Shown: positions 2,732 through 26,463 of the stretch, piece by piece
Layout of the letters: the number at the start of each line of letters is the position of its first letter
Numbering within the stretch: the stretch's first letter is position 1
DNA from: an uncultured Candidatus Neoarthromitus sp.
GTDB taxonomy: Bacteria; Bacillota; Clostridia; Clostridiales; Clostridiaceae
NCBI GenBank assembly: GCA_937890765.1
Contig: CALADQ010000009.1
Coordinates: 15,339-47,338, forward strand
Direction: 5' to 3'
DNA: 32,000 bases
Notes under the pieces: model-generated
What the model saw: only the letters and a program-made list of their open reading frames with translations
Database searches by the model: none
Told to the model about the DNA's origin: nothing
Position numbers and translations under genes: made by a program

Positions 2732-2813
2732 TATAAAAACCCCACTCAACTACATTTTTAATATTTAGTTTGAGAATACTACAAACAAATTATTTTCTAA
2801 GGTGGATATGTTT

Positions 2814-3719
2814 ATGAAATTTCTGATTAAATTATCAATAATATTTTTTGTTTTTACGGGTTACCATTTCACTAGTTATGATAACTATTTTTCAAAAATT
2901 ATATACAAGACCGCCTTTTCGCTACAAAAAACAAAAAACTATATCAGTTCTATTCTACTACAAAAAAATAATATTAACAACTCATCTTCCAAAAACGAAA
3001 TGTCCGAACTTATGAACGAATACTTTTTGACAATTTTTAATGCTGACTCAATTAATGAAAATTTTAAAAAAATTTTGGAGGCCTCAAACTTTTCAATTTT
3101 GGATTTGAAAAACTCAGAAATAAATTTTGATTTAAATCAAGAATTTAATTTTTTGAATGACAAAAATTTTCTCGTGGTAAATTCCAAAAACGAAAATTCA
3201 ATTTCTGAAATTAACGAAGAAGTTTATAGATTTTATCGATATAAAAATTTTTCAATCGCCTACTTAAAACCAATTTTAAAAAACGAAAAAGATTTACTAA
3301 AACTTTATACTTCAATTAAAGTTATTCAAAATAGTTCTTACATTCCAATTGTGATTATCGATAAAAATAATTTAAATGAAAATTTGCTCCCAAAAATCTC
3401 ACAAACAAATTGCGTTTTTATAATTTTAAACGATGAATTTTCGATTTCTAATTTCAAAAATATTCCCATAATCAATCTCGGAAATTTAAATGATTTTAAC
3501 ATTTCAATTCAAATCAATTTGTTTATCTCAAAAAATAATTTAAACAAATTAAGATTAAAAGTTTTCCCAACAAATAAATTCAACAAATCAATTCCTTCAA
3601 AAGATGAGTTAGAAAATATTTTAAAATCAATGAATAATAATTCTAAATTTAAACCACAATTTAGTGAAAATATTGATTATATTTATTTTGATTGTGATAT
3701 ACTCAAAAATAGTTATTAA
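2814..3719 (+). CDS. hypothetical protein with N-terminal membrane anchor or signal
   Basis: The track ORF is 2802..3719. AAGGTGG at 2799-2805 makes ATG 2814 (8-nt spacing) the likely start. The N-terminus is hydrophobic (KFLIKLSIIFFVFTGY). The protein is Asn/Lys-rich and I recognise no family. Confidence 0.6.
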   Translation: MKFLIKLSIIFFVFTGYHFTSYDNYFSKIIYKTAFSLQKTKNYISSILLQKNNINNSSSKNEMSELMNEYFLTIFNADSINENFKKILEASNFSILDLKNSEINFDLNQEFNFLNDKNFLVVNSKNENSISEINEEVYRFYRYKNFSIAYLKPILKNEKDLLKLYTSIKVIQNSSYIPIVIIDKNNLNENLLPKISQTNCVFIILNDEFSISNFKNIPIINLGNLNDFNISIQINLFISKNNLNKLRLKVFPTNKFNKSIPSKDELENILKSMNNNSKFKPQFSENIDYIYFDCDILKNSY

Positions 3720-5858: not shown

Positions 5859-7115
5859 ATGATTATAATTAAAAAGAATATTAACTTATTTATAGTAACT
5901 ATTTTTATATTTACGTTTCTAATTTATAGCGTAGCATTTTCATATACGCCGTACAACTATTCAATAACTTTAGAAGAAGGAATAAAATTTGTTCATAAAA
6001 CTTTAGTCAACTATGATTCAAACGGTGGAAATCAAGAAATAAATTATATTGAAGCTGATTTAACAAATCCAAATATATATGTTTCATTGTCCAAAGCAAA
6101 TAATATTTCATCTTCTAAAGAAAACTTATTAAACCAACTTAATCAACAAAAGTACAACAAAAACAAAAATGTTTTAGGTGGAGTAAATGGGGAATTTTTT
6201 AATGTGTCAAATGGACAACCTCTGTTCACTACAATTTCTGATGGTGAAATTTTTTCTATAATGGATAATGAATTTGATTCATCAAATAGACCAATTTTTT
6301 ATATGGACAAGCACAGAAATTATTCATTTGATTTTTTTAACGTTGTTGGCAACTTAAGATTTACAAATAATAAATTTAAAGATTTGAAAATAAATTCTTT
6401 GAACAGATTAAATTCACACGATGACGTTAATGTTTCAACTTATAAAATTAATGATGAATCAACTTACTACCCTCATGAAGGTTTACCTTCAAGATATATG
6501 CTTATACAACTCATGAACAGCGATGGGTCAATTTATCCTGGTGTCGAAATTTATGGTGAAGTAATTGATGTTGGTGAAATGACTTCTCCAAAAAAAATAG
6601 AGAAAAATCAAATTTTAGTTACATCATATGGAGATGAAAATTATTACAATATCAGTTATGATTCATTTAAATCTGTCGTTTCCATAAAATTTGATATATA
6701 TTCATCAAACGATGGACGAATAAGAAATGATATTAAAGATGCCTTCACTGGATATGAATATTTAATAAAAAATGGTGAAGAGATGGATTACGATTACTAT
6801 AAAAATTTATCTGAACCATCTTTAATCAATACACGAAATGCTCGAACAGCATTAGGCCTTACACCTGAAAACAAATTAATTTTGTTTACTGTTGACAAAT
6901 CAAAAAACAGTTTGGGAATGAGCTTAAAAGAACTTTCCAACTACCTAAAATCAATGGGGATTTCTAATGCCATAAATTTAGATGGAGGAGGTTCAACTTC
7001 AATTTCATTTGAAAATAATGAAGGCAAACTTTTCCTAATGAACGACCCTGAAAAATATCAACGCAAAATCACAAACGCAATTAGCATAATACACAATTCA
7101 AAAAACAAGGCATAG
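5859..7115 (+). CDS. phosphodiester glycosidase family protein (DUF2233/NAGPA-like), secreted or anchored
   Basis: The N-terminus has a TM or signal segment (LFIVTIFIFTFLIYSVAF). The C-terminal block ARTALGLTPENKLILFTVDKSKNSLGMSLKELSNYLKSMGISNAINLDGGGSTS is typical of the phosphodiester glycosidase domain. Confidence 0.78.
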   Translation: MIIIKKNINLFIVTIFIFTFLIYSVAFSYTPYNYSITLEEGIKFVHKTLVNYDSNGGNQEINYIEADLTNPNIYVSLSKANNISSSKENLLNQLNQQKYNKNKNVLGGVNGEFFNVSNGQPLFTTISDGEIFSIMDNEFDSSNRPIFYMDKHRNYSFDFFNVVGNLRFTNNKFKDLKINSLNRLNSHDDVNVSTYKINDESTYYPHEGLPSRYMLIQLMNSDGSIYPGVEIYGEVIDVGEMTSPKKIEKNQILVTSYGDENYYNISYDSFKSVVSIKFDIYSSNDGRIRNDIKDAFTGYEYLIKNGEEMDYDYYKNLSEPSLINTRNARTALGLTPENKLILFTVDKSKNSLGMSLKELSNYLKSMGISNAINLDGGGSTSISFENNEGKLFLMNDPEKYQRKITNAISIIHNSKNKA

Positions 7116-7157: not shown

Positions 7158-7754
7158 TTACAAACTTTCCACAGCATGTCTAGCTTCACTTTCTGTGAAC
7201 TTTTCATCATAAACTAATTTGTCATAAACATGATTTTTCGATACACCCAAAACATCAACATATCTTTTTGCAGCTTTTACAGCACTTTCTTTCCAATCAA
7301 AATCTAAATTTTCAATTGCATATTGAGCTTCCTCATCAGTAAAACCATCAAATTCAGAAGTCAATTGATCATAAATACTTTTCTTGGATATGCCTGAATC
7401 ACCCATACTTTTAACATATCTTCTAGCTGTATCCAAAGCAAATGATTTCCAATCAGCCTCTAAACTTTCAAATGCTTTTCTTGCTTCTTCTTCTGAAAAT
7501 TTATTAACACTAGAAACTAATTGATTATATATTGAAGCTTTTGATATTGCCATGGTATCTGCATACATTTTTGCAACTTTGAAAACGTCAGTTTCTCTAA
7601 CTATAGTATCAACTGATTGAGATAATTCAGTCGCCTCTTGAGATGCTGCATTTGCACTTTTACCTGTCATACTACAACCATAAAAGCTTAAAGGAATCAT
7701 AGCCAATGAAACAACAAACAATAATTTTTTATAAAATTTAATTTTTGTTAACAT
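7158..7754 (-). CDS. Ltp-family (host cell surface-exposed lipoprotein) repeat lipoprotein
   Basis: The track ORF is 7158..7769. GGAGG lies 8 nt before ATG 7754, which gives MLTKIKFYKKLLFVVSLAMIPLSFYGCS, a signal peptide with a Cys lipobox-like site. It has three Ltp-type repeats: S..SIYNQL....FSEEEA..A.ESL..DW, then ...SIYDQLTSEFDGFTDEEAQYAIENLDFDW, then ...HVYDKLVYDEKFTESEARHAVESL. Confidence 0.8.
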   Translation of the reverse strand: MLTKIKFYKKLLFVVSLAMIPLSFYGCSMTGKSANAASQEATELSQSVDTIVRETDVFKVAKMYADTMAISKASIYNQLVSSVNKFSEEEARKAFESLEADWKSFALDTARRYVKSMGDSGISKKSIYDQLTSEFDGFTDEEAQYAIENLDFDWKESAVKAAKRYVDVLGVSKNHVYDKLVYDEKFTESEARHAVESL

Positions 7755-7844
7755 CTTCACAACCTCCATATAATTATTAATTTCTTTAGTAGTGATATTC
7801 TATCTATTATTGAATATAAAATCAACCGTTTTATTAATAAATTG

Positions 7845-7889
7845 CAAAAAAACAAAAAGCTACTTAAGAGGATTGTCCCCCTCAAGTAA
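7845..7889 (-). terminator. intrinsic terminator closing the GT2 triplet
   Basis: On the minus strand an imperfect GC-containing hairpin (7860-7889) follows the stop at 7890 directly. It is then followed by CUUUUUGUUUUUUUG (the complement of 7845-7859). Confidence 0.65.
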
Positions 7890-8864
7890 CTACACTATCC
7901 AAAATAAATTTTTAAGATGATGATATCCAAAATTTTTAAGAAACTCTCTCGCACTCTCAAAAAATACTGTCCCAATGAAAAAAGTAGTTTCTTCAGAATC
8001 AAAATTATAAATTTCTCGAATCATAAATTCTTCAATCATATTTTCATCTACATAAATTATATTTTCATGTTCGTTCAAAATATTTTTTACCAATTCAATT
8101 TTATCACTAGATTGTATTACAATTACATGTTTACTTTTTTCAATATACGTTTTAAACAAATATTTAAATAACAATTCAAGATGAAGAAATGCTATTTTTA
8201 TTCCCGTTCCATCGACAATTGAAGAATTGTTTCCATGAACTCTATAATAATAAAGTTCCTCTTCAATAACTCCTATTCTATGTCCCTTTGTATGAAATTC
8301 TAAAAATATAAGCCTATCTTCAACGCATCCATACCTATGTTGAAATGGATTTATTGTTTTGAATAAATAACTTTTTCCAAAAATCGCACCACCATTTGGA
8401 TATCTACCAAAATAAGCTCTATTAAATTGGTCCATATAATTTTTAATTGGTATGTTTAATGTTTCCATGAGTTTCATATATTCTCTATCACCATCGCCAA
8501 AACCTTTTAAATAACAACCAATTAAATCATAATTATTATTTTTAAGATACTCAAGTTGCTTTTCGTATCTGTCCAAACGATTTATATCATCTCCGTCATG
8601 CCTCGCAATATATTTCCCATTTGCAACAGCAACACCTAATCTCATGGCCATACATATTCCACCATTTTTTCTCGTGAGAACTTTAACTCTCTTGTCCATT
8701 TTTTCGTATTGCTTAAGTATGGACAAACTTCTATCAGTTGAACCATCATCAACTAATATAATTTCTAAATTTTCATATGTTTGATTAATAACGCTGTCCA
8801 AACTATCTACTAAATATTTTTCTACATTGTAAACAGGTACAATGACGCTTATTAAATCTTCCAT
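7890..8864 (-). CDS. family 2 glycosyltransferase (copy A), soluble type with a roughly 100-aa C-terminal extension
   Basis: GT-A signature: ISVIVPVYNVEKYL...NQTYENLEIILVDDGSTDRS...ARHDGDDI. The track start is GTG 8876. AGGTGG lies 8 nt before ATG 8864, which gives MEDLISVIV. I see no TM segment. Confidence 0.85.
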   Translation of the reverse strand: MEDLISVIVPVYNVEKYLVDSLDSVINQTYENLEIILVDDGSTDRSLSILKQYEKMDKRVKVLTRKNGGICMAMRLGVAVANGKYIARHDGDDINRLDRYEKQLEYLKNNNYDLIGCYLKGFGDGDREYMKLMETLNIPIKNYMDQFNRAYFGRYPNGGAIFGKSYLFKTINPFQHRYGCVEDRLIFLEFHTKGHRIGVIEEELYYYRVHGNNSSIVDGTGIKIAFLHLELLFKYLFKTYIEKSKHVIVIQSSDKIELVKNILNEHENIIYVDENMIEEFMIREIYNFDSEETTFFIGTVFFESAREFLKNFGYHHLKNLFWIV

Positions 8865-8889
8865 AGAATTCACCACCTAAAATTTTTAT

Positions 8890-9909
8890 TTACCAATTAC
8901 AATCGACTAGACTAAACAAATTTTTAAAAACCACAAAATCCCTTTCAAAAAGATATTTAACTAAACTATCACAAAATGAAGCTCCAACAAGAAAAAGCGT
9001 ATTATTACAATTAAAATCATAATTGAAAATTTCGTTAAAATTATTTTCATCAAAATAAAATACATTTTTAAGCTCTTTGTAAAATTTTGAAAAACAATTT
9101 TTTATAAATCCAATCTCTCTAAAATTTTTCACAATCACAACATTTTCATATTTCAAAATTTTATCTCTAAACAAAAATCTAAACATAACTTCCACATATT
9201 TTTCAACAACAACTTTTCTATTTTTATCTAATGAAGTATTATCATTGTGAACTCTGTAATAATAGAGTTTTTCTTCAAGAATTCCAATTTTACAACCATT
9301 TTGATGAAGCAAAATATATAGATAAACATCTTCAACTAATCCATAATCTTTATGAAATGGCGAAAATTTTTTAAGAACATCACTTTTCCCGAAAAAATAT
9401 CCACCTCCAATATTACTACCTTGATAGATTCGCCTATTTTGATCATCAAAATTTTTTATAGGCCTATTAACAAATTTCTCCATGCCTCTTTTTGATATCT
9501 CACTTCCATTACCAAAACTTTTCAAATAACACCCAACAACATCATAATCATTTTCAATAAGAAATCTTAATTGTTTCTCGCATCTATCAAGCGAATTAAT
9601 ATCATCTGAATCAACTCTAAATATATATTTTCCATTTGATATACTCAAAGCATTTTTAACAGCCAACGAAATTCCCAAATTATTTTGAGTCATTACGATT
9701 ATCCGCTTGTCCAATCTTTCATAATGCTTCAAAATTGAAAGAGAATTATCTGTTGAACCATCATCGATAAAAATTATTTCTAAATTTTTATAAGTCTGAT
9801 TAATAATACTATCAATACATTCATGCAAATATTTTTCCCTATTATAAACAGGGACAATAGCACTTACTAAATCTTCTATAATCATCACCACCCCAAATTT
9901 TTTCACCAA
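8890..9909 (-). CDS. family 2 glycosyltransferase (copy B)
   Basis: It has the same GT-A motifs (VPVYNREKYL, IDDGSTDNS, RVDSDDI). The start is ambiguous. TTG 9909 or GTG 9906 overlaps the TGA stop of copy C (a GTGA overlap). ATG 9885 directly follows GGGGTGGTG. The position that is ATG in copy A reads ATA here. Confidence 0.82.
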   Translation of the reverse strand: MVKKFGVVMIIEDLVSAIVPVYNREKYLHECIDSIINQTYKNLEIIFIDDGSTDNSLSILKHYERLDKRIIVMTQNNLGISLAVKNALSISNGKYIFRVDSDDINSLDRCEKQLRFLIENDYDVVGCYLKSFGNGSEISKRGMEKFVNRPIKNFDDQNRRIYQGSNIGGGYFFGKSDVLKKFSPFHKDYGLVEDVYLYILLHQNGCKIGILEEKLYYYRVHNDNTSLDKNRKVVVEKYVEVMFRFLFRDKILKYENVVIVKNFREIGFIKNCFSKFYKELKNVFYFDENNFNEIFNYDFNCNNTLFLVGASFCDSLVKYLFERDFVVFKNLFSLVDCNW

Positions 9910-10892
9910 CAGAAATCAACCAAATTAAATAAATTTTCAAAAACTTCAAAATCTCTTTCACTAACATAATCTTTCAACTTTGTTTTAAATGAATGTCCAA
10001 TAATAAAAAGCGTGTTATCAGATTTGAAATCACACTTTAAAATTTCATCAACATTGTCATCATCAAAATAAAATACATTTTTAACATTTGGATAAAACTC
10101 GGAAAAACAATTTTTTATCACTCTCATATCCTTATCATTTTTTACGATTACAACATTTTCATATTTCAAAATCTTTTCTCTAAAAAGAAATCTAAAAATA
10201 ACTTCAATATGTTTTTCAACAACAATTTTTCTATTCTTATCTAGTGAAGTATTATCATTGTGAACTCTGTAATAATAAAGTTCTTCTTGAAGAATTCCAA
10301 TTTTACAACCATTTTGATGAAGCAAAATATATAAATAAACATCATCAACTAATCCATAATCTTTATGAAATGGAGAAAACTTTTTAAGAACATCACTTTT
10401 CCCAAAAAGATAACCTCCTCCGATATTACATCCCTCATAAATTAATTTATTTTGGTCATGATAATCTTTTATAGATCTGTTAACATATACCTCCATGCCT
10501 TTTTTAGATATTTCACTTCCATTACCAAAACTTTTTAAATAACAACCAACAACATCATAATCCTTTTCAAGAAGGAATTTTAATTGTTTTTCACACCTAT
10601 CTAAGTAATTGATATCATCTGAATCAACTCTGAATATATATTTTCCATTTGATATACTCAAAGCGTTTTTAACAGCTAAACACGTTCCCAAATTATTTTG
10701 AGTCATTACAATTATTCGCTTGTCCAATCTTTCATAATGCTTCAAGATTGAAAGAGAATTATCTGTTGAACCATCATCAACAAAAATTATTTCTAAATTT
10801 TTATAAGTTTGATTAATAATGCTATCAATACATTCGAACAAATACTTTTCCCTATTGTAAACAGGAACAATAACACTTACCAAATCGCCCAT
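9903..10892 (-). CDS. family 2 glycosyltransferase (copy C)
   Basis: The protein starts MGDLVSVIVPVYNREKYL and carries VDDGSTDNS and RVDSDDI. GAGGTG SD lies 7 nt before ATG 10892. It is a near-duplicate of copy B. Confidence 0.87.
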   Translation of the reverse strand: MGDLVSVIVPVYNREKYLFECIDSIINQTYKNLEIIFVDDGSTDNSLSILKHYERLDKRIIVMTQNNLGTCLAVKNALSISNGKYIFRVDSDDINYLDRCEKQLKFLLEKDYDVVGCYLKSFGNGSEISKKGMEVYVNRSIKDYHDQNKLIYEGCNIGGGYLFGKSDVLKKFSPFHKDYGLVDDVYLYILLHQNGCKIGILQEELYYYRVHNDNTSLDKNRKIVVEKHIEVIFRFLFREKILKYENVVIVKNDKDMRVIKNCFSEFYPNVKNVFYFDDDNVDEILKCDFKSDNTLFIIGHSFKTKLKDYVSERDFEVFENLFNLVDFCW

Positions 10893-10904
10893 AAAACTTC
10901 ACCT

Positions 10905-10942
10905 CAAAATAAAAATAGCCAGGAAAATAAAATTCCTAGCTA
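10905..10942 (-). terminator. terminator-like hairpin between the methyltransferase gene and the GT2 triplet
   Basis: On the minus strand the stem is UAGCUAGGAA (10942-10933) with UUCCUGGCUA (10925-10916), 9 of 10 bp paired. It is followed by UUUUUAUUUUG and then immediately by the GAGGTG SD of GT2 copy C. Confidence 0.5.
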
Positions 10943-11017
10943 CAAAATCTATATAAAATCAAATAAATATTTGATATTAACAATTTACCGTAAATTAATC
11001 TGCAAAAATAAAACAAT

Positions 11018-12886
11018 TTATTTAGTTATAACTAAAGTTCCACCTAAATCACATAAAGGAAATTTTAAAAGTTTATGGCCAATAATTTTTTCAAAATCTT
11101 TAACTGCCGATGATACACCTTTATACAATTTATGATTATAATCTCTAACAAAAATATATCCGCCTGGCGATAATCTATTGTAAAAATATTTCAATCCTTC
11201 TAAAGTTGCTTTATAAAAATTTACATCTAAACTAACAAAACAAAATCTTTCTTCAAATCCTTCTAAACTTTCAGGAAAATATCCTTGTTTAACAACAACT
11301 TTATCTTTATTTTGTAATTTATCTAATACCAAATCTACATTAGTAATTTTATAAATATCTCTAATATCATTTAAAATATTTTCATCTACAAATTTATTTA
11401 CTTTTTCAAATTCAATATCACGTTCGTCATAACTATTAAATGTGTCAAACAAATAAAGTTTTCTATCATAAAATACCTTACTTAAAAGTTTAGCAAAATC
11501 TCCTCTGAACACTCCTAATTCCGCTACTTCACCTAAAACATTGTTATTTTTAATCTCTCTCGCACAAAGTTCCAAAGTAAAAAACCTATTATAATCACCG
11601 CCATTAACATCATCTATATTAACTGGATTATTTTCATCGCTCACAAATTCATAATCACTATTAATTTTTGATGTTAAAACTACACCATTTGAATAATTAC
11701 TTCCATTAAAAATAGCATTACTTATATCTTTGAAAGCTTGTCCAATTTCATTAGCATATGATATCAGTTCTCCACTTTCCAGATAATTTTGAGCAGCTCC
11801 TCCATAATTTCTTTTTTTAGATAATATTCTTCCTATTAAACTGTACAAATTTTTTGAAGTTTCATTCATTATAGTGTGCTTTTCTGGATTATTACTTAAA
11901 TCTAATTCAATTTCTTCCAGAAATTTATCTATTTCAAAATCAGTGTTTATTAAAACTCTCTTCCCTTTTAGATATATAAGTTCTAACAAATTACATTCTT
12001 CTTTTTCTAATTCTTTTAAACATTCATCAAATTTAGTATAATCTTTAAGCTCTATATAACTTTCACATAAAACAAAAAGCGAATACATCTTCATAAAATG
12101 GTATAAATCTTCATCTAAATAAGAGTACTCCCCAGTATTATTTTTAATATAAGAGGCATAATTTATAATTGTTTGAGGAAGTTCTTTATTTTCTATTTTC
12201 AAAATTAAAAGATAATATTTCCATATAGGATTTGGATCTATTAAACTCATTCTGTTTAGTATAAATTCATTTGTATCCGATTTCCTAATAAAATTTTCAT
12301 AATCTCTTATTTTGAGAAGAGTTATTTTAGTATTAACATAGTTTTTATATTTTTTATTATAAATTCTATCTTCAAAATATTCTTCATTTTTTTCAATATC
12401 TAATATTTTAAAATTAATATTTGTACACGCTATTTCGTCTAATATAAAATATAATTCTTCTATTTCATCATAATCTTCTAAAAAAATTTCGTTTGAATTT
12501 ATATTTATTTGTACATTGTCAGAACATTTATAATTATGAATACTTGCATAAGAATTAGAACAAAATTTTTGCATATTTTTTTCAAATTGTCCATGCACAT
12601 TTAATTTTACTTCTCTCTTCCTATATCTTAAAAGATATTCTATAAAATTCTCCAAATCATCAAAAACACTATCTTCCAAAATATCTTTATAATCATTTCC
12701 AAAAAAGTATTTTTCTAAAGATTCAGAAACACTGTCGATCAATCTTAAAACTTTTAGTCTTTTCTGTATCTTCAAAATCAATTCTTTGTTAACTTTAGGC
12801 TTGCATAAAAGTTTCTCTACCATTTCATTAAAAAAATCAAAATTTCCTATTAGAAATTTTGAATAAGTATCCAAATAATCCCCCAC
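11018..12886 (-). CDS. fusion protein: N-terminal helical domain of about 400 aa (unknown) plus a C-terminal TylF/Methyltransf_24-like class I SAM-dependent methyltransferase
   Basis: GTG start at 12886 with AAGGAGG 7 nt upstream. C-terminal motifs are GEVAELGVFRGDFAKLL, LYLFDTF, VSLDVNFYKATLEGLKYFYNRLSPGGYIFVRDYN. These follow the macrocin-O-methyltransferase-type pattern E.GV.rG...LFD.F...lD.D.Y..T...L......L..GG....DDY. Confidence 0.75.
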   Translation of the reverse strand: MGDYLDTYSKFLIGNFDFFNEMVEKLLCKPKVNKELILKIQKRLKVLRLIDSVSESLEKYFFGNDYKDILEDSVFDDLENFIEYLLRYRKREVKLNVHGQFEKNMQKFCSNSYASIHNYKCSDNVQININSNEIFLEDYDEIEELYFILDEIACTNINFKILDIEKNEEYFEDRIYNKKYKNYVNTKITLLKIRDYENFIRKSDTNEFILNRMSLIDPNPIWKYYLLILKIENKELPQTIINYASYIKNNTGEYSYLDEDLYHFMKMYSLFVLCESYIELKDYTKFDECLKELEKEECNLLELIYLKGKRVLINTDFEIDKFLEEIELDLSNNPEKHTIMNETSKNLYSLIGRILSKKRNYGGAAQNYLESGELISYANEIGQAFKDISNAIFNGSNYSNGVVLTSKINSDYEFVSDENNPVNIDDVNGGDYNRFFTLELCAREIKNNNVLGEVAELGVFRGDFAKLLSKVFYDRKLYLFDTFNSYDERDIEFEKVNKFVDENILNDIRDIYKITNVDLVLDKLQNKDKVVVKQGYFPESLEGFEERFCFVSLDVNFYKATLEGLKYFYNRLSPGGYIFVRDYNHKLYKGVSSAVKDFEKIIGHKLLKFPLCDLGGTLVITK

Positions 12887-12950
12887 ATTATCCTCCTTAA
12901 TTATGCAAAGTATTTTATTATTACAAAATATTTATATTTATTATTAAATA

Positions 12951-12995
12951 AAAAATTACCAAAATAAAGAAGCACATACGAATTGCATGTGCTTC
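12951..12995 (-). terminator. intrinsic terminator of the 724-aa surface protein gene
   Basis: A perfect 9-bp stem, gaagcacat (12969-12977) with atgtgcttc (12987-12995). It is followed on the minus strand by UUUAUUUUGG. Confidence 0.72.
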
Positions 12996-13005
12996 ATAAA
13001 TATTA

Positions 13006-15180
13006 TTATTCTACTTTTAATCCTATACTGAACAAGAAGTTTCTAGTTTCCAATTCTCCTAACATTCTCTGAGAAATGGCTTGCATTGCTGCTGTTCTAT
13101 CTCCAAGTTGTGCTATTGTTTGTTCAAGTGTTTTAACCCACCATGCCAAACCTTCAGCATCTGAAGTTCTTCCTGTTACCGATCTATACATACGTTCTAC
13201 ATATTTAGCATTATCTAAGTTCTTTTCTTTATATTCATTTTCATTTACTATATTTGAAGTAAAGTAATTAACTGTTATTTCTTGTGATGAAAGTTTTGAC
13301 GTCCAATAAAGCATACCATCTGGATCTCCATCTCTTAAGAAGAATATGTGGTAAAATCCTTCAATCCAGTCCTTAGCATTTGTAACTTTCTTAGTTGTAA
13401 ATGCTTCTATTTCCATTCCTAATTCTTCACCATTTACTAGGGTAACAACTAATTCTAATCCTTTGTGTTGATTATTTGGTGTCAATCCGTATAATTTCAA
13501 CAAACTATTCTTAGAATCATAGAAAGACTTAGCTATTGAATCACCATCTATCCTAACATCTTTAACTATGCCATCTTTATCATTAAACTTAATTTCAAAC
13601 TCTGCTTTAGTAGGAGTTATATTCTTAAGTTCAAATGACTTTAAGAAATCATCCGATATATTAACATCACTTCCTGATGATTTACCACCCATAGTTTTAA
13701 TAGGAATTGGATTTACAGAAATAAGATCATAATTTGTAAACCTTCTATTTATATCCCCATCACCTGAATTATAAGTTACAATTAATTCTACAAACTTATA
13801 AGTAGTACCTGGCTTTAAGCCTTCAATTATAAAATCTTTATAAGCTGTAGCATTCTTTTGTGGATCTTTAACTAAATCATCTGTCTTACCATAAGATTGA
13901 ACTTGACCTATTTTATCGGCTTCTTTAAGAATTCTACCTGAATAAATTTTCCCTTCTGAATCTTTAATTTGAATTCTTTTTACGGTATTTTCCGGATCAT
14001 AAATAGCATCATAGAAAACTATTCCATCTTCTAATGGTCTAACGTTAGAATGCTTATAACCATGTGATTTATCATCGCTTGAAAATGGACCTATATACTC
14101 AACAATACCATTTCCTTTTGAAGAAACCTCTCCCTTTGAATTTACAGATAAATCAGTATAATAAGAAACTGTAGATTTTATAGTCATAGGGTCCAATGGA
14201 TTTGAATTATCTACATTTATAGCTTCAGTTAACATAGGATCAACATAAGGAATTATTCCTTTAGCCCCTGAAATTTCTGATTGTTGAGAAACTTTCCTAA
14301 CAACACTACTTTCAACTAAAGATGGGAATAACAATTCGCCTTGAAATTTAATATTTGTTACTTCACTTCCAGTTGGTAAACCATAAACCTTAAAGTAAAT
14401 ATTTCCCTCTTCATCAACAATTCTAGGAGCATTGAACTTGTTTGTATACTGATTTACCTTAGATACAGTACTATCCATTATTAAATCTAATACTGTGATT
14501 TTCTTTTGATCAGACTTAGAACCAGTTGAATAATCTACAATAAGATTAAAATCTTTATTAACTAATTCACCAGATTCATACAACATACCTAGAGAATTTT
14601 GAATGACTGTTGCAAGAGTCTCTTGCTCAATTAAACTTATTTGACTTCCTTTGCCTTGTTCAAGCAAAATTTTATTTTTCTTAACCTCTTCAACTGCTTT
14701 ATCTATAGTGTTTTTAAGAGCCTCCCCAACATTTCCACCAAATTTAACTTTAATGTATATATATCCTCCTGTTAGAGCATCTCTTACATTTGACTTTTTG
14801 TAGTCTTTTACATCTTCTCTAATTACAACTGTGCTTGACCTTAAAACTCCACCTTCAATTCCAACTATGCTCATAAAATTTTCAGCAGATTTTTCAACCG
14901 AAGCTGGTGCCTTAAAATCTTCCGTACCTTTTAACGGTAACATCTCATTTTCATCATATTTACCATTACCATTAAAATCAACTGCTCCTGGATTTGAACC
15001 AGCTGGAACTTCTGTATTAAGAAGACCAACGGTGAACTGTCTATCGCCTTCTAAGTATTTATCTTCAGCTGCCGGTATAGCAAAAGCGGTGAAACTTCCA
15101 AAATTAACGCATATAGTTGAAAACATAAACATAGAAACTAATGTTGCAACTATCTTTTTAGTAAACTTCTTACTTAACAT
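13006..15180 (-). CDS. secreted cell-surface protein with tandem C-terminal DUF4214-type domains (S-layer-like candidate)
   Basis: The track ORF runs to 15231, but GAGGAGGAAGAG directly precedes ATG 15180. That start gives MLSKKFTKKIVATLVSMFMFSTICVNFGSFTAFA, a signal peptide. The C-terminus carries two DUF4214-like units: WIEGFYHIFFLRDGDPDGMLYWTSKL... and YVERMYRSVTGRTSDAEGLAWWVKTL.... It is a paralog of the 969-aa protein at 23293..26202. Confidence 0.82.
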   Translation of the reverse strand: MLSKKFTKKIVATLVSMFMFSTICVNFGSFTAFAIPAAEDKYLEGDRQFTVGLLNTEVPAGSNPGAVDFNGNGKYDENEMLPLKGTEDFKAPASVEKSAENFMSIVGIEGGVLRSSTVVIREDVKDYKKSNVRDALTGGYIYIKVKFGGNVGEALKNTIDKAVEEVKKNKILLEQGKGSQISLIEQETLATVIQNSLGMLYESGELVNKDFNLIVDYSTGSKSDQKKITVLDLIMDSTVSKVNQYTNKFNAPRIVDEEGNIYFKVYGLPTGSEVTNIKFQGELLFPSLVESSVVRKVSQQSEISGAKGIIPYVDPMLTEAINVDNSNPLDPMTIKSTVSYYTDLSVNSKGEVSSKGNGIVEYIGPFSSDDKSHGYKHSNVRPLEDGIVFYDAIYDPENTVKRIQIKDSEGKIYSGRILKEADKIGQVQSYGKTDDLVKDPQKNATAYKDFIIEGLKPGTTYKFVELIVTYNSGDGDINRRFTNYDLISVNPIPIKTMGGKSSGSDVNISDDFLKSFELKNITPTKAEFEIKFNDKDGIVKDVRIDGDSIAKSFYDSKNSLLKLYGLTPNNQHKGLELVVTLVNGEELGMEIEAFTTKKVTNAKDWIEGFYHIFFLRDGDPDGMLYWTSKLSSQEITVNYFTSNIVNENEYKEKNLDNAKYVERMYRSVTGRTSDAEGLAWWVKTLEQTIAQLGDRTAAMQAISQRMLGELETRNFLFSIGLKVE

Positions 15181-15369
15181 CTCTTCCTCCTCGAAAGTAA
15201 TTAAATTTAAAATTAAACCCGCTAAACTCATTAAATTTATTTGATTGCGTTTATAAGTCTATATTCGAGATATTTAAAAAAAAGTTTACTGTATTAATTA
15301 AATTTTTATTTTTATAATTTTCTAAATTAATTTTAGGTTCATAAAATATAATATAAATTTATATTTTCA

Positions 15370-15834
15370 TTACATTAGAGCATCTTTCACTAATACAACA
15401 TTAAATATTTTGCTAGTGTACATAGTTTCACTATCATATATAACAAATTTCAATAAAAGCATTTTATTTTTAGGAATAAATTCAATTCCTTTACTTAAAG
15501 AATCTTGGAAGCTAGAATCAATTGGAATCCTCAAAAATTCTAAAAATTTATCATTATTTTCCACATTTTTCACATATATAGCAAAATCATATTTTTCAAG
15601 TTTTTCAAAATCTATTTGTTTTAAATTATAATTTATGTATTCAATAATTTGATTTTTAGTTAAATTCTCTTGAGTTAAATCAGATAAAAAAAGCTCTTCA
15701 CCTTTCATTCCAATAAACTTTATTCCCAATATTTTATTATTTAAAGTTTTAAATATAAAATCGAAATTTAACATTACTAAAAATATAAAAATAAAAGAAA
15801 GTGTTCCTATAACATTACGCTTTTTATAATTCAA
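15370..15834 (-). CDS. hypothetical small protein with N-terminal TM anchor
   Basis: TTG start at 15834 with GAGGGTG 6 nt upstream. The N-terminus is hydrophobic (VIGTLSFIFIFLVMLNFDFIF). I recognise no family. Confidence 0.55.
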   Translation of the reverse strand: MNYKKRNVIGTLSFIFIFLVMLNFDFIFKTLNNKILGIKFIGMKGEELFLSDLTQENLTKNQIIEYINYNLKQIDFEKLEKYDFAIYVKNVENNDKFLEFLRIPIDSSFQDSLSKGIEFIPKNKMLLLKFVIYDSETMYTSKIFNVVLVKDALM

Positions 15835-15888
15835 CTACAACACCCTCATTCCAATTAAAAAATTTCAAAACGAAAACATATTCACAAT

Positions 15889-16878
15889 TTAAACTTCTAT
15901 ATATTTATCTTTCAATACCATTTCGACCCAATTTAAATTATTTAAATACCAATTCACAGTATGCTTTAATCCTTCAAAAATTTTAATTTTACACTCAAAA
16001 CTCAAATTACTATCTAAATTTTCAATATTGTTGTAGAAGTTATTCTCATCTAACTTTTCGTTATTTTTTAAAACTATTAAAGATTCATCTTTATTTAAAA
16101 AAGATAAAACTTTTTTTGTTAATTCCAACTCATCTATTTCTTCACAAGAAAAAATATTATAAATATTTCCTGATTTTCCAGTACGTATTATTTTATCTAT
16201 TGCAATAACATGATCATAAACGTGAACTAATTTCATAAACTTTCTATTTTTATTAAAAAAAATTTTTTCATTTCCAATAGCTTTAACAATAATTGATGGA
16301 ATGAATTTTTCTGGATATTGATATGGACCATAATTATTTGCACTTCTAGAAATAGTTACTTCCAAATCAGAATTTTTACAATAACACAATGCCAACATAT
16401 CACTTGAAGCCTTAGTAAAAAAATAAATGGATGATAGATTTAATTTATCATTATTACAGAAAAATTTTTCATCGTACGAATGTAAATTTTCATGTATTTC
16501 ATCTGTTGAAACTTGATGAAATTTTTTAACATTATACTTTAAACACATATCCATTAAATTTTTTGTACCTATTATATTGGTTTTCAAAAACAAATTACTA
16601 TCTTTAATAGACTTATGAGCATAAGTTTCAGCTGCAAAATTTAGAACTAAATCAAAATGCTCCTTTGCAAAAACATCACTCAAAAAATCATTGTCTAAAA
16701 TATTTCCTCTATAAAATTTGAAATTTGTATTTTCTTTAACTGATTCTAAATTTTCAAGATTACCGGCATAAGTTAAAGCATCTAAACAAACAATCTGAAT
16801 ATCTCTATACTTATTTATCATGTAGCTTATAAAATTACTTCCAATAAATCCAGCTCCGCCAGCTACGCAAACCTTCAT
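15889..16878 (-). CDS. NAD-dependent sugar-nucleotide 4,6-dehydratase/epimerase (SDR family), RmlB-like
   Basis: Rossmann motif GGAGFIGSNF. RmlB-like blocks are LTYAGNLENL, VSTDEI, Y-FFT-K (YxxxK) and SRSANNYGPYQYPEKFIPS. AGGAGG SD favours ATG 16878 over the track's TTG 16881. Confidence 0.8.
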   Translation of the reverse strand: MKVCVAGGAGFIGSNFISYMINKYRDIQIVCLDALTYAGNLENLESVKENTNFKFYRGNILDNDFLSDVFAKEHFDLVLNFAAETYAHKSIKDSNLFLKTNIIGTKNLMDMCLKYNVKKFHQVSTDEIHENLHSYDEKFFCNNDKLNLSSIYFFTKASSDMLALCYCKNSDLEVTISRSANNYGPYQYPEKFIPSIIVKAIGNEKIFFNKNRKFMKLVHVYDHVIAIDKIIRTGKSGNIYNIFSCEEIDELELTKKVLSFLNKDESLIVLKNNEKLDENNFYNNIENLDSNLSFECKIKIFEGLKHTVNWYLNNLNWVEMVLKDKYIEV

Positions 16879-19112: not shown

Positions 19113-20360
19113 ATGAAAAAAATAATTCATTTAAACAACAACGATTACGAACTTTCTAACGTTTTTAGTAAAGACAAAAAAGGATTTTTCTCAATGCTAG
19201 TTATTATGCTTGGATTTACATTTTTCTCAGCAAGTATGATGACAGGTGGGACTCTTGGAACTGGTTTGGATTTCAAAAATTTTATCATTGCAGTTGCTGC
19301 AGGAAATTTAATTCTCGCAATATACACTGGCCTTCTTGCATACGTTGGTTCTTCTACAGGACTATCGATGCATTTGTTAACGAGATATTCATTTGGAGAA
19401 AAAGGTTCTTATTTAGCATCTTTTATAACAAGTATAACTCAGATTGGTTGGTTTGGAGTTGGAATTTCAATGTTTGCAATACCAATCGCAAATAGATTTA
19501 ATATAAATGTTTATGTTTTAGTTGGAATAACTGGGATTCTCATGACATCAACCGCATATTTCGGAATAAAATCCTTGACTATATTAAGTGCCATAGCAGT
19601 ACCTGCAATTGCAATATTAGGTAGCACTTCAATTTTTATAGCTACAAATTCTGTTGGTGGAATAAATGACTTGATGAATATAACTCCTGTTGATAAAATT
19701 TCTTTAATTAGTGCAATTTCATTATGCATAGGGTCATTCATAAGTGGTGGAACAGTTACACCAGACTTCGCGAGATTTTCAAAAAAGAAAATGTCTGCGG
19801 TATTAACAACAGTTATCGCATTTTTCATTGGGAATTCATTAATGTTTCTATTTGGAGCAATAGGAGCTATGGTTAAAGGAACTGCCGAAGTAGCAGATGT
19901 ATTATTTTCACAAGGGCTCGTAATACCTGCAATAATAGTTTTAGGTTTAAACATTTGGACTACAAACGACAATGCACTTTACACTTCTGGGCTTGGACTT
20001 TCAAACATAACAAAAATATCTAAAAAGAAACTTGTGTTAATAAGTGGTTTAATTGGAACTGTAGGAGCGATATGGCTCAACAATAATTTTATTGAATTTC
20101 TAACATTTTTAAACTCTATGCTTCCACCAATTGGAGGAATAATAATCGCAGATTTTTTCTTCGTAAACAAACGCAAATATGAAAAAATAGAAAATGTAAA
20201 ATTCAAATCCATAAATCCAATTGCCATAATTTCATTTTTAATTGGATTTTCCACAGCTCACTTAATAAAATTTGGGATAACAGCAATAAATGTTTTGATT
20301 ATTACAATTATTTCTTATGTTATTGGAATGAAATTATTTTATAAGAAAGGAACTCATTAA
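19113..20360 (+). CDS. codB: cytosine permease (NCS1 family)
   Basis: 415 aa. The blocks [36 protein letters not shown] and [19 protein letters not shown] closely match E. coli CodB as I recall it. Confidence 0.92.
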
Positions 20361-21625
20361 TGTTAATTAAAAATATTAAACTTTTAGACAGTGAAAAAAT
20401 TGTAAGTATAAGAATAGAAAATAAAATTATAACCGAAATTAATTCTGATTTATCTCCTTATGAAAATGAAGAAGTGATTGAAGGAAATAATCTTTTAGCA
20501 ATTCCTCCATTCATAGAACCGCACATTCATCTCGATACGACTTTAACAGCTGGAGAACCAAAATGGAACAAAAGCGGAACTCTTTTCGAAGGGATAAAGC
20601 GATGGAGTGAAAGAAAAGAATTTTTAACAAAGCACGATGTTAAATCACGAGCTATGAAAGTTGTAAAATGGCAAATTGCAAATGGCATTCAATTCATACG
20701 AACTCATGTGGATGTGACGGATAAAAATTTAGTTGCATTAGAAGCTATGCTCGAACTTAAAGATGATTTAAAAAATTTTGTTACTCTTCAAATAGTTGCG
20801 TTCCCTCAAGAAGGAATTTTATCTTTTAAAAATGGTAAAGAATTATTGGAGCAATCAATAAAATTAGGTGCTGATGTTGTTGGTGCAATTCCACATTTTG
20901 AATTTACAAGAGAGTACGGAGTTGAATCTATAAATTTTATTTTCGATTTAGCGACGAAGTACAATAAACTTATTGATGTTCATTGCGATGAAATTGATGA
21001 TGAACAATCTAGATTTTTAGAAGTAGTTGCAACTAGAGCTTTAGAAAGTGGATTAAAAAATAAAGTTACTGCTAGTCATACAACAGCGATGGGCTCTTAC
21101 AACAACGCTTACACTTTTAAATTATTTAGGCTTTTGAAATTATCAAAAATAAATTTTGTGTGCAACCCTTTAATAAACACTCATCTTCAAGGAAGGTTTG
21201 ACACATATCCAAAACGAAGAGGCTTAACTCGTGTTAAAGAATTAAATGAAAATAATATAAATGTTTGTTTTGGACACGATGACATATTAGACCCATGGTA
21301 TCCAATGGGAACAGGAAACATGATGGAAGTTTTGCATTTTGGACTTCACGTGTGTCAAATGATGGGATATGATGACATAAATGAATCAATTAAATTTATA
21401 ACTAAAAATAGCGCATTAACATTAAACATAGAAGATGATTATAAAATTGAAATTTCAAAACCTGGAAATCTAATTATACTTAACAGTGAAAATATTTTTG
21501 ATGCTGTGAGAAAAAAGTGTGACGTTATCTATTCAATTAGGGAAGGAAAAATAATTTCAAAAAACAATCCTAAACAATCTTACGTGAACTTAAATGGACT
21601 TGAGGAAATAAATTTTATGAAGTAA
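20360..21625 (+). CDS. codA: cytosine deaminase
   Basis: The block [38 protein letters not shown]...[17 protein letters not shown] closely matches E. coli CodA. The start overlaps the codB stop (TAATG), which suggests translational coupling. Confidence 0.95.
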
Positions 21626-21841: not shown

Positions 21842-23245
21842 ATGTTAACCCTACGTTCGATAACAGAAAGTATAGATATTGATTATTTTAAATTTAATTT
21901 AAATTTTCATAAATACATTGAAGACAAATTGAAACAAGACAAGTTCAAAACAACAAAAGAATTTAAAAAGAATTTAAAAAGAAGAATACAACTTTTAAGT
22001 TGCATAAATGGTACATGCCCTGATTTGTTGAAATTCTTTATAAATGATGATTACACAAATTATCAAGAAGATTTTACTAACGAAGACCTTGTTGATTTAG
22101 TGAACAAATTTTCAGACGATGAACCAATAAAATTAAGTGTAAATCTAATAGTTTATAATGAAGAACGTTGCATAGAACGCTGTCTATCCTCCCTTCTAAC
22201 CTTCGCTGACGAAATTTTAGTTTTAGACACTGGGTCCACAGACAATACAACTAAAATAATCGAAGAAAAATTCCCACAAGTAAAACTTTTTCGTGATAAA
22301 TGGAGAAAAGATTTTGCATACTCGCGAAATATTTTAATAGATAAATCTACAAACGATTGGATTCTTTCAATTGACGCCGATGAAACGCCAATAGATGAAT
22401 TTCATCTCATAAAAGATGTTATTTCTCTATTCAACAATTTTAAAGCTGATAAAGATCACCCTCTTGTATTTTCACCTACTATAGATTCATTAGGTCAAAA
22501 AATAAATACAACAAAAAGAATTTTCAACAAAACACATGAAATGAAATTTGATGGGAAGATTCACGAAGAAATTGTATCTAAAAATGAAAAGGAAATCAAT
22601 TATATAATGCTATCACTAACTTTAAGTCATGACGGATATCATCCCGATGTATTTAAAGAGAAAAATAAGGCAGAGAGAAATACAGAAATCCTAGAAAAAA
22701 TGATAAAATTAGAGCCAAACAAAATAAGATGGTATTATTTTTTAGGACGCGAAAAAAATATTTTAGGACACGATATTGATGAATGTATAAAAATTTTAAA
22801 ATCTGGTTTGAAATTAAAACATACTCAAAATTCTATAGAAAATTTTTACTACAATATTTTAACTTTACTTGCAAAAATATCTGTATCTCATAAAAAATAT
22901 GATTTATTAAAAGAAGTTATCGAATTAATGGAATATGAAATTCCAAATTCCCTAGATGCATTTTATTTTAAATTAATATTGGAAAATGATTCAGTAATGA
23001 GTGATAAATTTCTACAAATAAATAATATGGTAAAATCTATTGGTGATATTTCAAATAAAGTAAATACAATTGATGAAACATATTCTCATATACTTCACAC
23101 TTTAGGTTTAATATATTTAAGTTTCAGAGATTATACAAGAGCATTTTACTATTTTAATCAAATTCAATCTCAAAAAAATATAGATGCCATCAAAGAGATT
23201 CTTTTACCACTTAAAAATGAAATAGATGAATTTATGAAAAAATAA
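21842..23245 (+). CDS. GT2 glycosyltransferase fused to a C-terminal TPR-like helical domain (SunS/GmaR-like architecture)
   Basis: The GT-A core is LSVNLIVYNEERCIERCL...ILVLDTGSTDNTTKIIEEKFPQVKLFRDKWRKDFAYSRN...SIDADE. It is followed by HDGYHPDV...ERNTEILEKMIKLEPNKIRWYYFLGRE and helical repeats. AGGTGG SD lies 6 nt before the ATG. Confidence 0.8.
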   Translation: MLTLRSITESIDIDYFKFNLNFHKYIEDKLKQDKFKTTKEFKKNLKRRIQLLSCINGTCPDLLKFFINDDYTNYQEDFTNEDLVDLVNKFSDDEPIKLSVNLIVYNEERCIERCLSSLLTFADEILVLDTGSTDNTTKIIEEKFPQVKLFRDKWRKDFAYSRNILIDKSTNDWILSIDADETPIDEFHLIKDVISLFNNFKADKDHPLVFSPTIDSLGQKINTTKRIFNKTHEMKFDGKIHEEIVSKNEKEINYIMLSLTLSHDGYHPDVFKEKNKAERNTEILEKMIKLEPNKIRWYYFLGREKNILGHDIDECIKILKSGLKLKHTQNSIENFYYNILTLLAKISVSHKKYDLLKEVIELMEYEIPNSLDAFYFKLILENDSVMSDKFLQINNMVKSIGDISNKVNTIDETYSHILHTLGLIYLSFRDYTRAFYYFNQIQSQKNIDAIKEILLPLKNEIDEFMKK

Positions 23246-26202: not shown

Positions 26203-26463
26203 ATTTGTCCTCCTAAATCTTTAAAACAAAGTTAAAAACTACTTCACCATAATAATTATTACTAAAATTTAATTATTGTGTATTGTGATTTTCTCTTGGC
26301 ATAATAATAACATTTGTAATCTTTTTTTAACATATTTATATAATATGATTTTTCTAATGTTTTACTATTATTTTGAATTATATCTCCTATTCTCTCTATT
26401 TTCCTTACAATTTTATTTTTTAAATTACACTTTAACACGAAGTATAACACCTATAATTTAATA

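Follow-up and report, generated by a model that had tools for sequence, protein, structure and literature searches.

Why should a secreted structural protein be encoded in the midst of enzymes that modify sugars in the cytoplasm? The question arises from a stretch of 32,000 nucleotides (the window hereafter; about 26% GC) on contig CALADQ010000009.1 of an uncultured Candidatus Neoarthromitus sp. (assembly GCA_937890765.1), which was compared with loci of other segmented filamentous bacteria (SFB, Candidatus Arthromitus/Savagella), gut microbes that train host immunity. An earlier note on this DNA had described a block of seven genes in a row on one strand (7890-16878), encoding an RmlB-like dehydratase, a small anchored protein, a secreted protein with a DUF4214 tail, a methyltransferase fusion and three family 2 glycosyltransferases (GT2). 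All seven open reading frames (ORFs) are present, on the minus strand, and the domain calls hold in Pfam and NCBIfam hidden Markov model searches on the block proteins. Their ratios of nonsynonymous to synonymous substitution (dN/dS, here and below against a sister lineage of 89% identity, L004) are 0.10-0.26, and the block genes are therefore not chance ORFs; the ratios of housekeeping neighbours are 0.05-0.08. Tentatively, and at somewhat less than an even chance, we read the block as part of an SFB-specific island in which DUF4214 surface proteins are interleaved with a cytoplasmic, carrier-independent pathway for the glycosylation of polypeptides, a pathway whose rhamnose and methylation branch has decayed in this lineage.

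A SunS-family enzyme and the methyltransferase fusion

What could place a first sugar on a protein here? A candidate is encoded outside the block (Table 1). It matches the SunS profile TIGR04195 with 206.9 bits, below the equivalog cut-off of 350, and its matches in PDB are ThuS (7msk, 3e-49, query residues 72-445), SunS (7msn, 5e-44, query residues 72-455) and GmaR (6e-25), solved relatives which all glycosylate polypeptides directly. The enzyme keeps the family-invariant motifs NEERC, DTGSTD, DADE and HDGY. It is 83-100% identical across SFB, with a 100% match in the metagenome-assembled genome GCA_963557745.1, and its gene was found in every SFB locus examined whose sequence extends to that position. 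With a dN/dS of 0.02, it is the most constrained gene of the locus.

A second trace of the same family appears inside the block. The fusion protein of 622 aa, which has no internal hydrophobic segment in a hydropathy scan, had been described as a helical domain joined to a TylF-like methyltransferase. The TylF part of that description stands (PF05711, aa 433-600, 69.5 bits against a threshold of 23). The rest is better seen in an AlphaFold2 (AF2) model (pLDDT 83.5), which has an alpha/beta domain at aa 1-200, a helical domain at 207-392 and the methyltransferase at 430-622. In Foldseek searches the methyltransferase part matched SpnH, MycF, NovP and CalS11, which are rhamnose or 6-deoxyhexose O-methyltransferases, and the remainder matched SunS (7msn, E 1.7e-8). 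Profile comparison by hhalign aligned the fusion family with the SunS-like family at 99.35% probability (E 6e-21, 371 columns, fusion aa 17-394). As controls, the fusion family gave 0.7% against the GT2 family, and the SunS-like family gave 97% against the GT2 family, limited to the expected 84 columns. The supposed helical N-terminus is thus a degenerate GT-A plus helical domain, a paralog of the neighbouring SunS-family glycosyltransferase. Its nucleotide-binding region with NEERC and DTGSTD is lost, and DADE has become NSNE in the window and NS(N/D)E across the family. The dN/dS of the whole fusion is 0.10, and the alpha/beta part of this pseudo-glycosyltransferase module is its most constrained portion (0.04, against 0.13 for the helical part and 0.14 for the methyltransferase). 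The fusion family is nearly confined to SFB (24 matches). A tetratricopeptide repeat (TPR) protein of the window (857-2749) was also considered as a third SunS-like paralog and ruled out, at 3.5% probability against the SunS-like family.

How might such a set of enzymes work? The paralogy of the fusion N-terminus with the SunS-family enzyme ties the block to polypeptide-directed, carrier-free glycosylation. The SunS-family enzyme would move the first sugar from a nucleotide sugar to a Ser, Thr or Cys of the acceptor, and the soluble single-module GT2 enzymes would lengthen the glycan. The catalytically degenerate SunS-like module may dock on the acceptor, or may pair with the active enzyme in the way that GtfB, an inactive glycosyltransferase paralog, assists GtfA. 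The TylF domain would O-methylate a terminal 6-deoxyhexose. In avian-type and some other SFB, the donor would be dTDP-L-rhamnose supplied by rmlA, rmlC, rmlB and rmlD of the locus itself, and in the rml-positive lineages the TylF domain would finish the glycan with O-methyl-rhamnose. In the window lineage the rhamnose and methylation branch would have decayed. Purifying selection still acts there on the SunS-like enzyme, on the fusion's pseudo-glycosyltransferase module and on the GT-A half of each of the three GT2 enzymes. A glycan of this kind would be assembled on its protein prior to secretion and would not require an exporter. The earlier note had offered direct cytoplasmic glycosylation of the surface protein as one of two options, and this option gains independent support from the conserved SunS/ThuS/GmaR-type enzyme and its degenerate paralog in the fusion.

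Table 1. Features of the window discussed in the text, with the basis of each assignment
Feature	Position	Strand	Basis
SunS-family polypeptide glycosyltransferase (GT-A + helical domain), candidate priming enzyme	21842..23245	+	TIGR04195, PDB matches
Fusion protein: degenerate SunS-like glycosyltransferase module (aa ~17-394), then sugar O-methyltransferase of the TylF family (aa ~430-622)	11018..12886	-	Pfam, AF2, Foldseek, hhalign
SP741, secreted DUF4214-tailed surface protein, 724 aa	13006..15180 (ORF 13006-15231)	-	PF13946, signal-like segment
SP969, secreted DUF4214-tailed surface protein, 969 aa	23293..26202	-	PF13946; SP741 paralog; probable SFBNYU_003240 ortholog
Small N-terminally anchored protein	15370..15834	-	Single N-terminal hydrophobic segment, aa 6-32
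RmlB-like short-chain dehydrogenase/reductase (dTDP-glucose 4,6-dehydratase family), degenerate here	15889..16878/16881	-	PF01370/PF16363, TIGR01181
GT2c, single-module, with C-terminal domain of ~110 aa	9903..10892	-	PF00535, 3e-35
GT2b, 80% identical to GT2c; start probably Met9, near 9885	8890..9909	-	PF00535
GT2a, more divergent, 46% identical to GT2c	7890..8876	-	PF00535
Ltp-type lipoprotein gene, at P3340 position	7158..7769	-	PF07553, three repeats
Terminator-like hairpin, 3' of surface-protein gene	12969..12995	-	11-bp stem, then T-run
Terminator-like hairpin, 3' of methyltransferase fusion gene	10915..10943	-	Hairpin scan
Terminator-like hairpin, 3' of last GT2 gene	7858..7891	-	15-bp stem, then T-run

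DUF4214 surface proteins and the island that holds them

Which protein might receive the sugars? The surface protein of the block, SP741, starts at Met18 (position 15180), which is preceded by a GGAGG ribosome-binding site, and the resulting length agrees with the 724 aa claimed before. The PF13946 match covers aa 660-706 of the 741-aa ORF; the protein has an isoelectric point of 5.2, no Cys in its mature part and a dN/dS of 0.13. Its orthologs have 717-725 aa, and its 62 homologs (59-89% identity) come, where the source is named, from SFB or Candidatus Dwaynia (gallinarum). No relatives with solved structures were found for it. Its place in the gene order identifies it as the ortholog of mouse SFBNYU_003310. 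SP969 shares 24-30% identity with SP741 in the N-terminal domain and in the tail. It has NGLVYLTL at the position of the mouse CD8 epitope SGLIYVTL, and a gene count backwards from 3340 arrives at 3240 for the protein of ~970 aa. Both proteins have PF13946 at about 1e-13 and an N-terminal hydrophobic segment in the hydropathy scan, that is, the signal peptide and C-terminal PF13946 of Cluster 1 in Pamp et al. (2012). Some 19 secreted proteins specific to SFB have DUF4214 in common as their C-terminal region, which is presumed to be a wall-anchoring module; SFB are without sortase and SLH domains, and DUF4214 proteins, autolysins among them, are kept in all SFB. An S-layer and a "hair-like layer" of SFB were imaged recently, the molecular composition of the latter being stated as unknown (PMC12780176). 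Upstream of the SP969 gene, a small ORF (26262-26450) has the string MLKKDYKCYYY in common with an ORF of 58 aa that takes the same place in the distant lineage L009 (1035-1211). It was rejected as a peptide gene, since it looks spurious and resembles a conserved non-coding leader or promoter element of the highly conserved SP969 gene.

The small anchored protein is likewise present as an ORF with an N-terminal hydrophobic segment, as the earlier note had it, and it matches no Pfam family. Its identity is 44% against the N-terminal 144 aa of a 374-aa protein of rat SFB, and with 154 aa here against about 375 (374-378) in other SFB it is a truncated ortholog. The longer ortholog in L009 has a weak DUF4214 match. 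The dN/dS of the small protein is 0.25.

Is this arrangement peculiar to the window? Gene order around the orthologs was read, with flanks of up to 10 kb, in several SFB lineages, among them the window, rat SFB, L004, L007, L009, L013 and chicken/turkey SFB. In every lineage sampled, the block is the variable arm of an island of about 19 kb (~7.1-26.2 kb of the window). The first half of its conserved frame holds the ~970-aa surface protein, the convergent SunS-like glycosyltransferase, a variable insert and RmlB; the second half holds the anchored protein, the ~720-aa surface protein, the fusion or its N-terminal part, one to four GT2 enzymes and, mostly, a DUF4214 protein of 1036-1067 aa. 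The genes of SP969 and of the SunS-like enzyme, which lie outside the coordinates of the block, form part of this system too. In all lineages examined, the island keeps its synteny with three or four DUF4214 genes.

The 1036-1067-aa DUF4214 protein, the last gene of the frame in most lineages, is the T helper 17 (Th17) antigen P3340, as judged from peptide, position and size. In rat SFB it stands directly after the GT2 gene and has LVFDVQFNGQVPNNN, in which 11 of 15 residues are like those of the published SFBNYU_003340 peptide LVFDVQFSGAVPNKT; its size agrees with the 113.8-kDa tagged recombinant Th17 antigen. The ortholog holds this position in L002, L007 and L009. In the window an Ltp-type lipoprotein gene takes its position, and in the sister lineage the position is empty and the Ltp gene absent; the gene looks like a recent insertion or replacement. 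Its best PHROG match is phrog_4980 (superinfection exclusion, phage).

Synteny thus favours one or more of the neighbouring DUF4214 proteins as the acceptor, and flagellin or another polypeptide is possible. Could the acceptor of this carrier-free chemistry instead be flagellin, or a protein on the surface of spores or intracellular offspring that receives its sugars in the mother cell, with the DUF4214 genes as mere neighbours? We regard this as rather unlikely. The closest methyltransferase domain outside SFB (50% identity) is indeed found in an exporter-less flagellin glycosylation island of a metagenomic contig (L010), with a flagellin gene, an adjoining TPR-GT2 gene, GT2 enzymes, radical-SAM enzymes and nucleotide-diphosphate-sugar enzymes, and GmaR, among the solved relatives of the SunS-like enzyme, is a flagellin O-GlcNAc transferase. 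SFB have genes for four flagellins, and the unicellular offspring bear flagella. The combination of rml genes, GT2 enzymes and O-methyl-rhamnose also recalls the C. difficile type-B flagellin glycan and the B. subtilis sps and B. anthracis BclA loci, all exporter-less. As in clostridial flagellin islands (C. difficile type, L010), a secreted structural gene stands by a SunS/GmaR-like or TPR-GT2 gene, a TylF-type methyltransferase and GT2 enzymes, without a lipid-carrier initiation enzyme or exporter. However, the adjacent structural genes in SFB are those of DUF4214 proteins with Sec signals. The flagellin genes lie in separate flagellar loci; neither the window nor the 10 kb around the block in each of the lineages examined yielded a flagellin gene or domain. 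The conserved synteny with DUF4214 genes also argues against a flagellin or spore acceptor.

The GT2 enzymes and the missing lipid-carrier machinery

Do the GT2 enzymes tell which kind of pathway they serve? All three match PF00535 at E values of about 1e-35 to 1e-37 (122-130 bits against a threshold of 23.3). They had been described as apparently soluble, and Kyte-Doolittle scans agree, showing no internal hydrophobic segment; the sole match, in GT2b, covers aa 1-19 and thus lies upstream of the point where that protein probably starts. GT2 enzymes without transmembrane segments are also the norm in lipid-linked pathways, and the trait discriminates nothing. The motifs DDGSTD, D(S/G)DD and ED are invariant in 13 SFB GT2 paralogs. 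The dN/dS is 0.20-0.26 over the whole proteins, 0.14-0.15 in the GT-A halves and 0.32-0.58 in the C-terminal thirds. The best PDB match of GT2c is GalT1 of Fap1 adhesin glycosylation (5hea, C-terminal GT2, 3e-27). Its relatives in a representative library are mostly unannotated giants of three to five GT2 modules, and the only full-length matches are proteins of ~330 aa. The AF2 model of GT2c, from an alignment of three sequences, has a pLDDT of 50, its only confident-looking part being a small alpha/beta C-terminal subdomain (aa ~240-310).

The window was then scanned for the genes expected of a lipid-linked pathway, which the earlier note had reported missing. Pfam scans took in its ORFs of at least 140 aa, except that the cytosine permease and cytosine deaminase were assigned from Pfam calls on orthologs in related loci. 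The scans revealed no polyprenyl-phosphate initiating transferase, no Wzx/Wzy or ABC exporter and no O-antigen-ligase-like protein or oligosaccharyltransferase. Might these genes lie just outside? No initiating transferase, flippase, exporter or ligase was found in any related SFB locus with its flanks of up to 10 kb (the rest of the genome was not searched), and the claimed absence is therefore true of the window and of every related locus examined. Accessory Sec genes were not found in the window either.

These absences bear on the main alternative explanation, which takes the block for one piece of a wall-polysaccharide pathway of the lipid-linked type. The three GT2 enzymes would then extend a rhamnose-type glycan linked to undecaprenyl pyrophosphate and the methyltransferase would cap it. 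The genes for initiation, for export and for attachment of the LCP or ligase type would lie in other parts of the 1.5-Mb genome, and the wall would be decorated with the polymer, possibly as a ligand of the DUF4214 tail. Transmembrane-less GT2 enzymes and a terminal methyltransferase fit lipid-linked assembly, the GT2 enzymes score best against polysaccharide enzymes of the TuaG, EpsE and WcaA types, though far below the cut-offs, and the cell-wall genes MurT and GatD and a phosphodiester glycosidase flank the locus. Surface-protein genes adjoin the genes of their own wall-glycan ligand in C. difficile (CWB2, PS-II) and Bacillus (SLH, csaB). On the other hand, the methyltransferase bears a SunS-like polypeptide-glycosyltransferase module rather than a polysaccharide-pathway module, an exporter or initiating enzyme appears in none of the distinct loci, and the unstable gene content is hard to square with a universal anchor ligand, given that DUF4214 proteins are kept in all SFB. 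We therefore consider a wall-polysaccharide fragment unlikely, though by no means negligible. The second option of the earlier note, a dedicated wall-glycan ligand for the DUF4214 tail, is disfavoured in particular: GT2, methyltransferase and rml genes are variable or decayed while the DUF4214 proteins persist, and the idea is ranked low because the content of the block varies between lineages. In SFB genomes, Pamp et al. (2012) found an O-antigen-ligase homolog, GT1 genes and a UDP-GlcNAc 2-epimerase, all elsewhere than in this locus, and these count for the wall-polysaccharide explanation.

Those homologs and the fit to lipid-linked assembly weigh against polypeptide glycosylation, and several further observations do so too. 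The closest relatives of the SunS-like enzyme outside SFB (35-36% identity) sit in glycocin clusters with a double-glycine (GG) leader peptide and a C39-ABC exporter, and its natural acceptor could therefore be a small peptide. Purine and pyrimidine salvage genes separate the SunS-like gene from the block in the window, and the block itself is split into at least three transcription units. The signal peptides of SP741 and SP969 are of the ordinary Sec type, and Sec is an uncommon route for proteins that are already glycosylated. No Ser/Thr-rich tract was found in either protein. Chondroitin synthase is a close second for GT2c (4.5e-23), GalT1 being hardly better. Glycosylation of any SFB surface protein is, finally, a prediction from genomic data.

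How far does the glycocin parallel go? Like SunS of the sublancin system (SunS/SunA) and ThuS of thurandacin, the SFB enzyme aligns near full length, over both the GT-A and helical domains. Unlike in glycocin clusters, no glycocin precursor was found in the window by tblastn with two genuine precursors or by a scan of Cys-rich small ORFs, no C39-peptidase ABC exporter was found there, and the enzyme stays under the SunS equivalog cut-off. The SFB island also differs from these clusters in its degenerate paralog-methyltransferase fusion, in its GT2 elongating enzymes and, in other lineages, in its rml genes. Two unannotated bacteriocin-like precursors with GG leaders and a common C-terminal TTW(N/S)YR(R/K) were seen in other loci (L017, 7632-7850; L018, 7731-7925), one of them in Paenibacillus alvei; both adjoin SunS-family enzymes and C39-ABC exporters, and they are probably uncharacterised glycocins.

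Decay of the rhamnose branch, known systems and other genes

Is the pathway still complete in the window lineage? The RmlB-like protein belongs to the dehydratase family as claimed, but it is degenerate in this lineage. Its TIGR01181 score of 292.7 bits is below the equivalog cut-off of 365.1 and, like that of L004 (288), well under those of other SFB orthologs (403-438), a difference of ~140 bits. In alignment it keeps the NAD-binding GxxGxxG (GGAGFIGS) and the catalytic residues of STDE and YxxxK (YFFTK); the RmlB of L004 has SIDE and a 7-aa deletion. The motifs ESHVD, GxGxxxRDW and DRxGHDxxY, which we take from RmlB structures to bind the dTDP-sugar, have become ETYAH, NKNRKFMKL and NNEKLDENNFY, and the dN/dS is 0.23. 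None of rmlA, rmlC and rmlD was found among the window ORFs scanned. Their absence is a lineage-specific loss and no feature of the design: two further lineages, like chicken/turkey SFB, have rmlA and rmlC between the SunS-like gene and RmlB and rmlD after RmlB, and all three clear their equivalog cut-offs. Exact-peptide patterns of the chicken-SFB RmlC, a weak test, matched only the source species and unrelated phyla among genome contigs. In the window, the sister lineage and rat SFB, the slot of rmlA and rmlC holds cytosine deaminase and permease. Nucleotide-salvage and rhamnose cassettes thus alternate in one slot (window 19113-21625, plus strand, versus L007 3312-4746 and L008 5231-6683).

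The methyltransferase shows a similar drift. It keeps the S-adenosylmethionine motif ExGxxxG as ELGVFRG. The motifs DxDxY and DDY, presumably the metal ligands and general base as in MycF and NovP, read DGDxY and DDY in SpnH and MycF and DVDLY and HDY in most SFB homologs. In the window the former is DVNFY; the two nearest lineages have DVS and DVK, and nearly all the rest have DVD. The DDY-equivalent is RDY, in place of HDY, in the window clade. In rat SFB only the first ~285 aa of the fusion remain, as a stand-alone protein of 298 aa (49% identical) without the methyltransferase domain, beside one GT2 gene. The fusion is intact in L007, with three intact GT2 genes and one split, and in L009, with one intact and one split. 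L013 has at least two GT2 genes and two tandem fusions (10001-13846), 44% and 64% identical to the window protein. Altogether, a lineage has one to four GT2 genes including split copies, zero to two methyltransferases, and rml genes or none. In the comparative check for a conserved cassette, the DUF4214 genes are kept and the GT2, methyltransferase and rml content varies widely. The GT2 genes split into two ORFs lie at 14924-15925 in L007 and 14237-15219 in L009; together with the tandem fusions of L013, they indicate ongoing duplication and pseudogenisation in the block.

From these comparisons the rhamnose-supply and methylation parts of the block look degenerate in the window lineage. Then is the whole block here a largely non-functional remnant of an ancestral rhamnose-glycan locus, with no current role? 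The lost RmlB motifs and lower score, the missing rmlA, rmlC and rmlD, the substituted DxDxY and DDY-equivalent (with N, S and K in the three closest lineages), the truncated small protein and the P3340-type gene gone from its usual place would all fit, as would the raised dN/dS of the GT2 enzymes, RmlB and the small protein against the housekeeping level. Yet the seven ORFs are uninterrupted in two lineages at a divergence of dS ~0.5, with dN/dS well under 1 everywhere; the GT-A halves and the pseudo-glycosyltransferase module are constrained, and the GT2 catalytic motifs are invariant. A remnant without function is in our view very unlikely.

The block is not transcribed as one. Eight terminator-like hairpins were found against 1.3 expected, and because three of them follow the genes of the surface protein, the fusion and the last GT2, the block comprises at least three transcription units, not a single operon.

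Is a locus of this kind new? The earlier note knew of no established system of this sort. A secreted structural protein amid cytoplasmic sugar enzymes is, however, an established arrangement, and exporter-less glycosylation islands beside a secreted substrate are well known for flagellin, serine-rich-repeat adhesins, glycocins and BclA. With the serine-rich-repeat systems (GtfA/GtfB, and GalT1/dGT1 of Fap1) the SFB island shares stepwise cytoplasmic glycosylation, as predicted here, and the best match of GT2c to GalT1; unlike in these systems, the priming fold is a SunS-type GT-A in place of GT-B, and the SFB proteins have no serine-rich repeats. The S-layer glycan (slg) clusters of Geobacillus and Paenibacillus and the S-layer glycosylation cluster of C. 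difficile SLCT-11 resemble the SFB island in setting a surface-layer-type gene next to rml genes, GT2 genes of rhamnosyltransferase-like type and an O-methyl cap function. They differ in that they also have genes for an initiating phosphoglycosyl transferase, for export by Wzx or an ABC system and for an oligosaccharyltransferase that resembles O-antigen ligases; initiating transferase, exporter and oligosaccharyltransferase occur in no SFB locus examined. The SFB literature searched (glycosyltransferases, rhamnose, glycocins) held no earlier description of the block and no mention of a link between glycosylation and DUF4214, of its placement in the T-cell-antigen locus, of the pseudo-SunS/TylF fusion or of the lineage pattern of rml loss.

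Among commensals, SFB serve as the reference for the induction of intestinal Th17, IgA and CD8 responses, and the locus puts known T-cell antigens, or their orthologs, beside a glycosylation toolkit. If the surface proteins are glycosylated, recombinant antigens from E. coli miss a native feature, lineage differences in the glycan could bear on host specificity, and the fusion of pseudo-enzyme and methyltransferase would be a new way to target a sugar-modifying enzyme to a protein substrate. A more specific scenario is that SFB recruited a glycocin-type enzyme together with a catalytically dead paralog, as acceptor-binding module or partner, to glycosylate Sec-exported DUF4214 proteins including P3340 and the CD8 antigen 3240, with a lineage-specific glycan that contains methyl-rhamnose in avian-type SFB and is truncated in rodent SFB and the window lineage. 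We hold this scenario doubtful, well below an even chance; if it is true, the glycan contributes to the S-layer and hair-like outer layers and to the host view of the antigens. If the proteins are not glycosylated, the block still records the stepwise decay of a rhamnose-glycan pathway over host-adapted lineages.

The other large ORFs of the window encode, by Pfam, the TPR protein, MurT, GatD, the phosphodiester glycosidase, adenine deaminase, signal peptidase II, a Na/H exchanger and an AAA protein. The phosphodiester glycosidase (PF09992, NAGPA) is membrane-anchored and lies at 5859-7115 on the plus strand, between MurT/GatD and the glycosylation block; a NAGPA-type gene is found at the same place in most SFB lineages examined, and the enzyme could process a phosphodiester-linked wall or protein glycan. 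The GC content of both surface-protein genes (13006-15231 and 23293-26202) is 30-33%, against 22-28% for their neighbours, which fits high expression or a distinct amino-acid composition.

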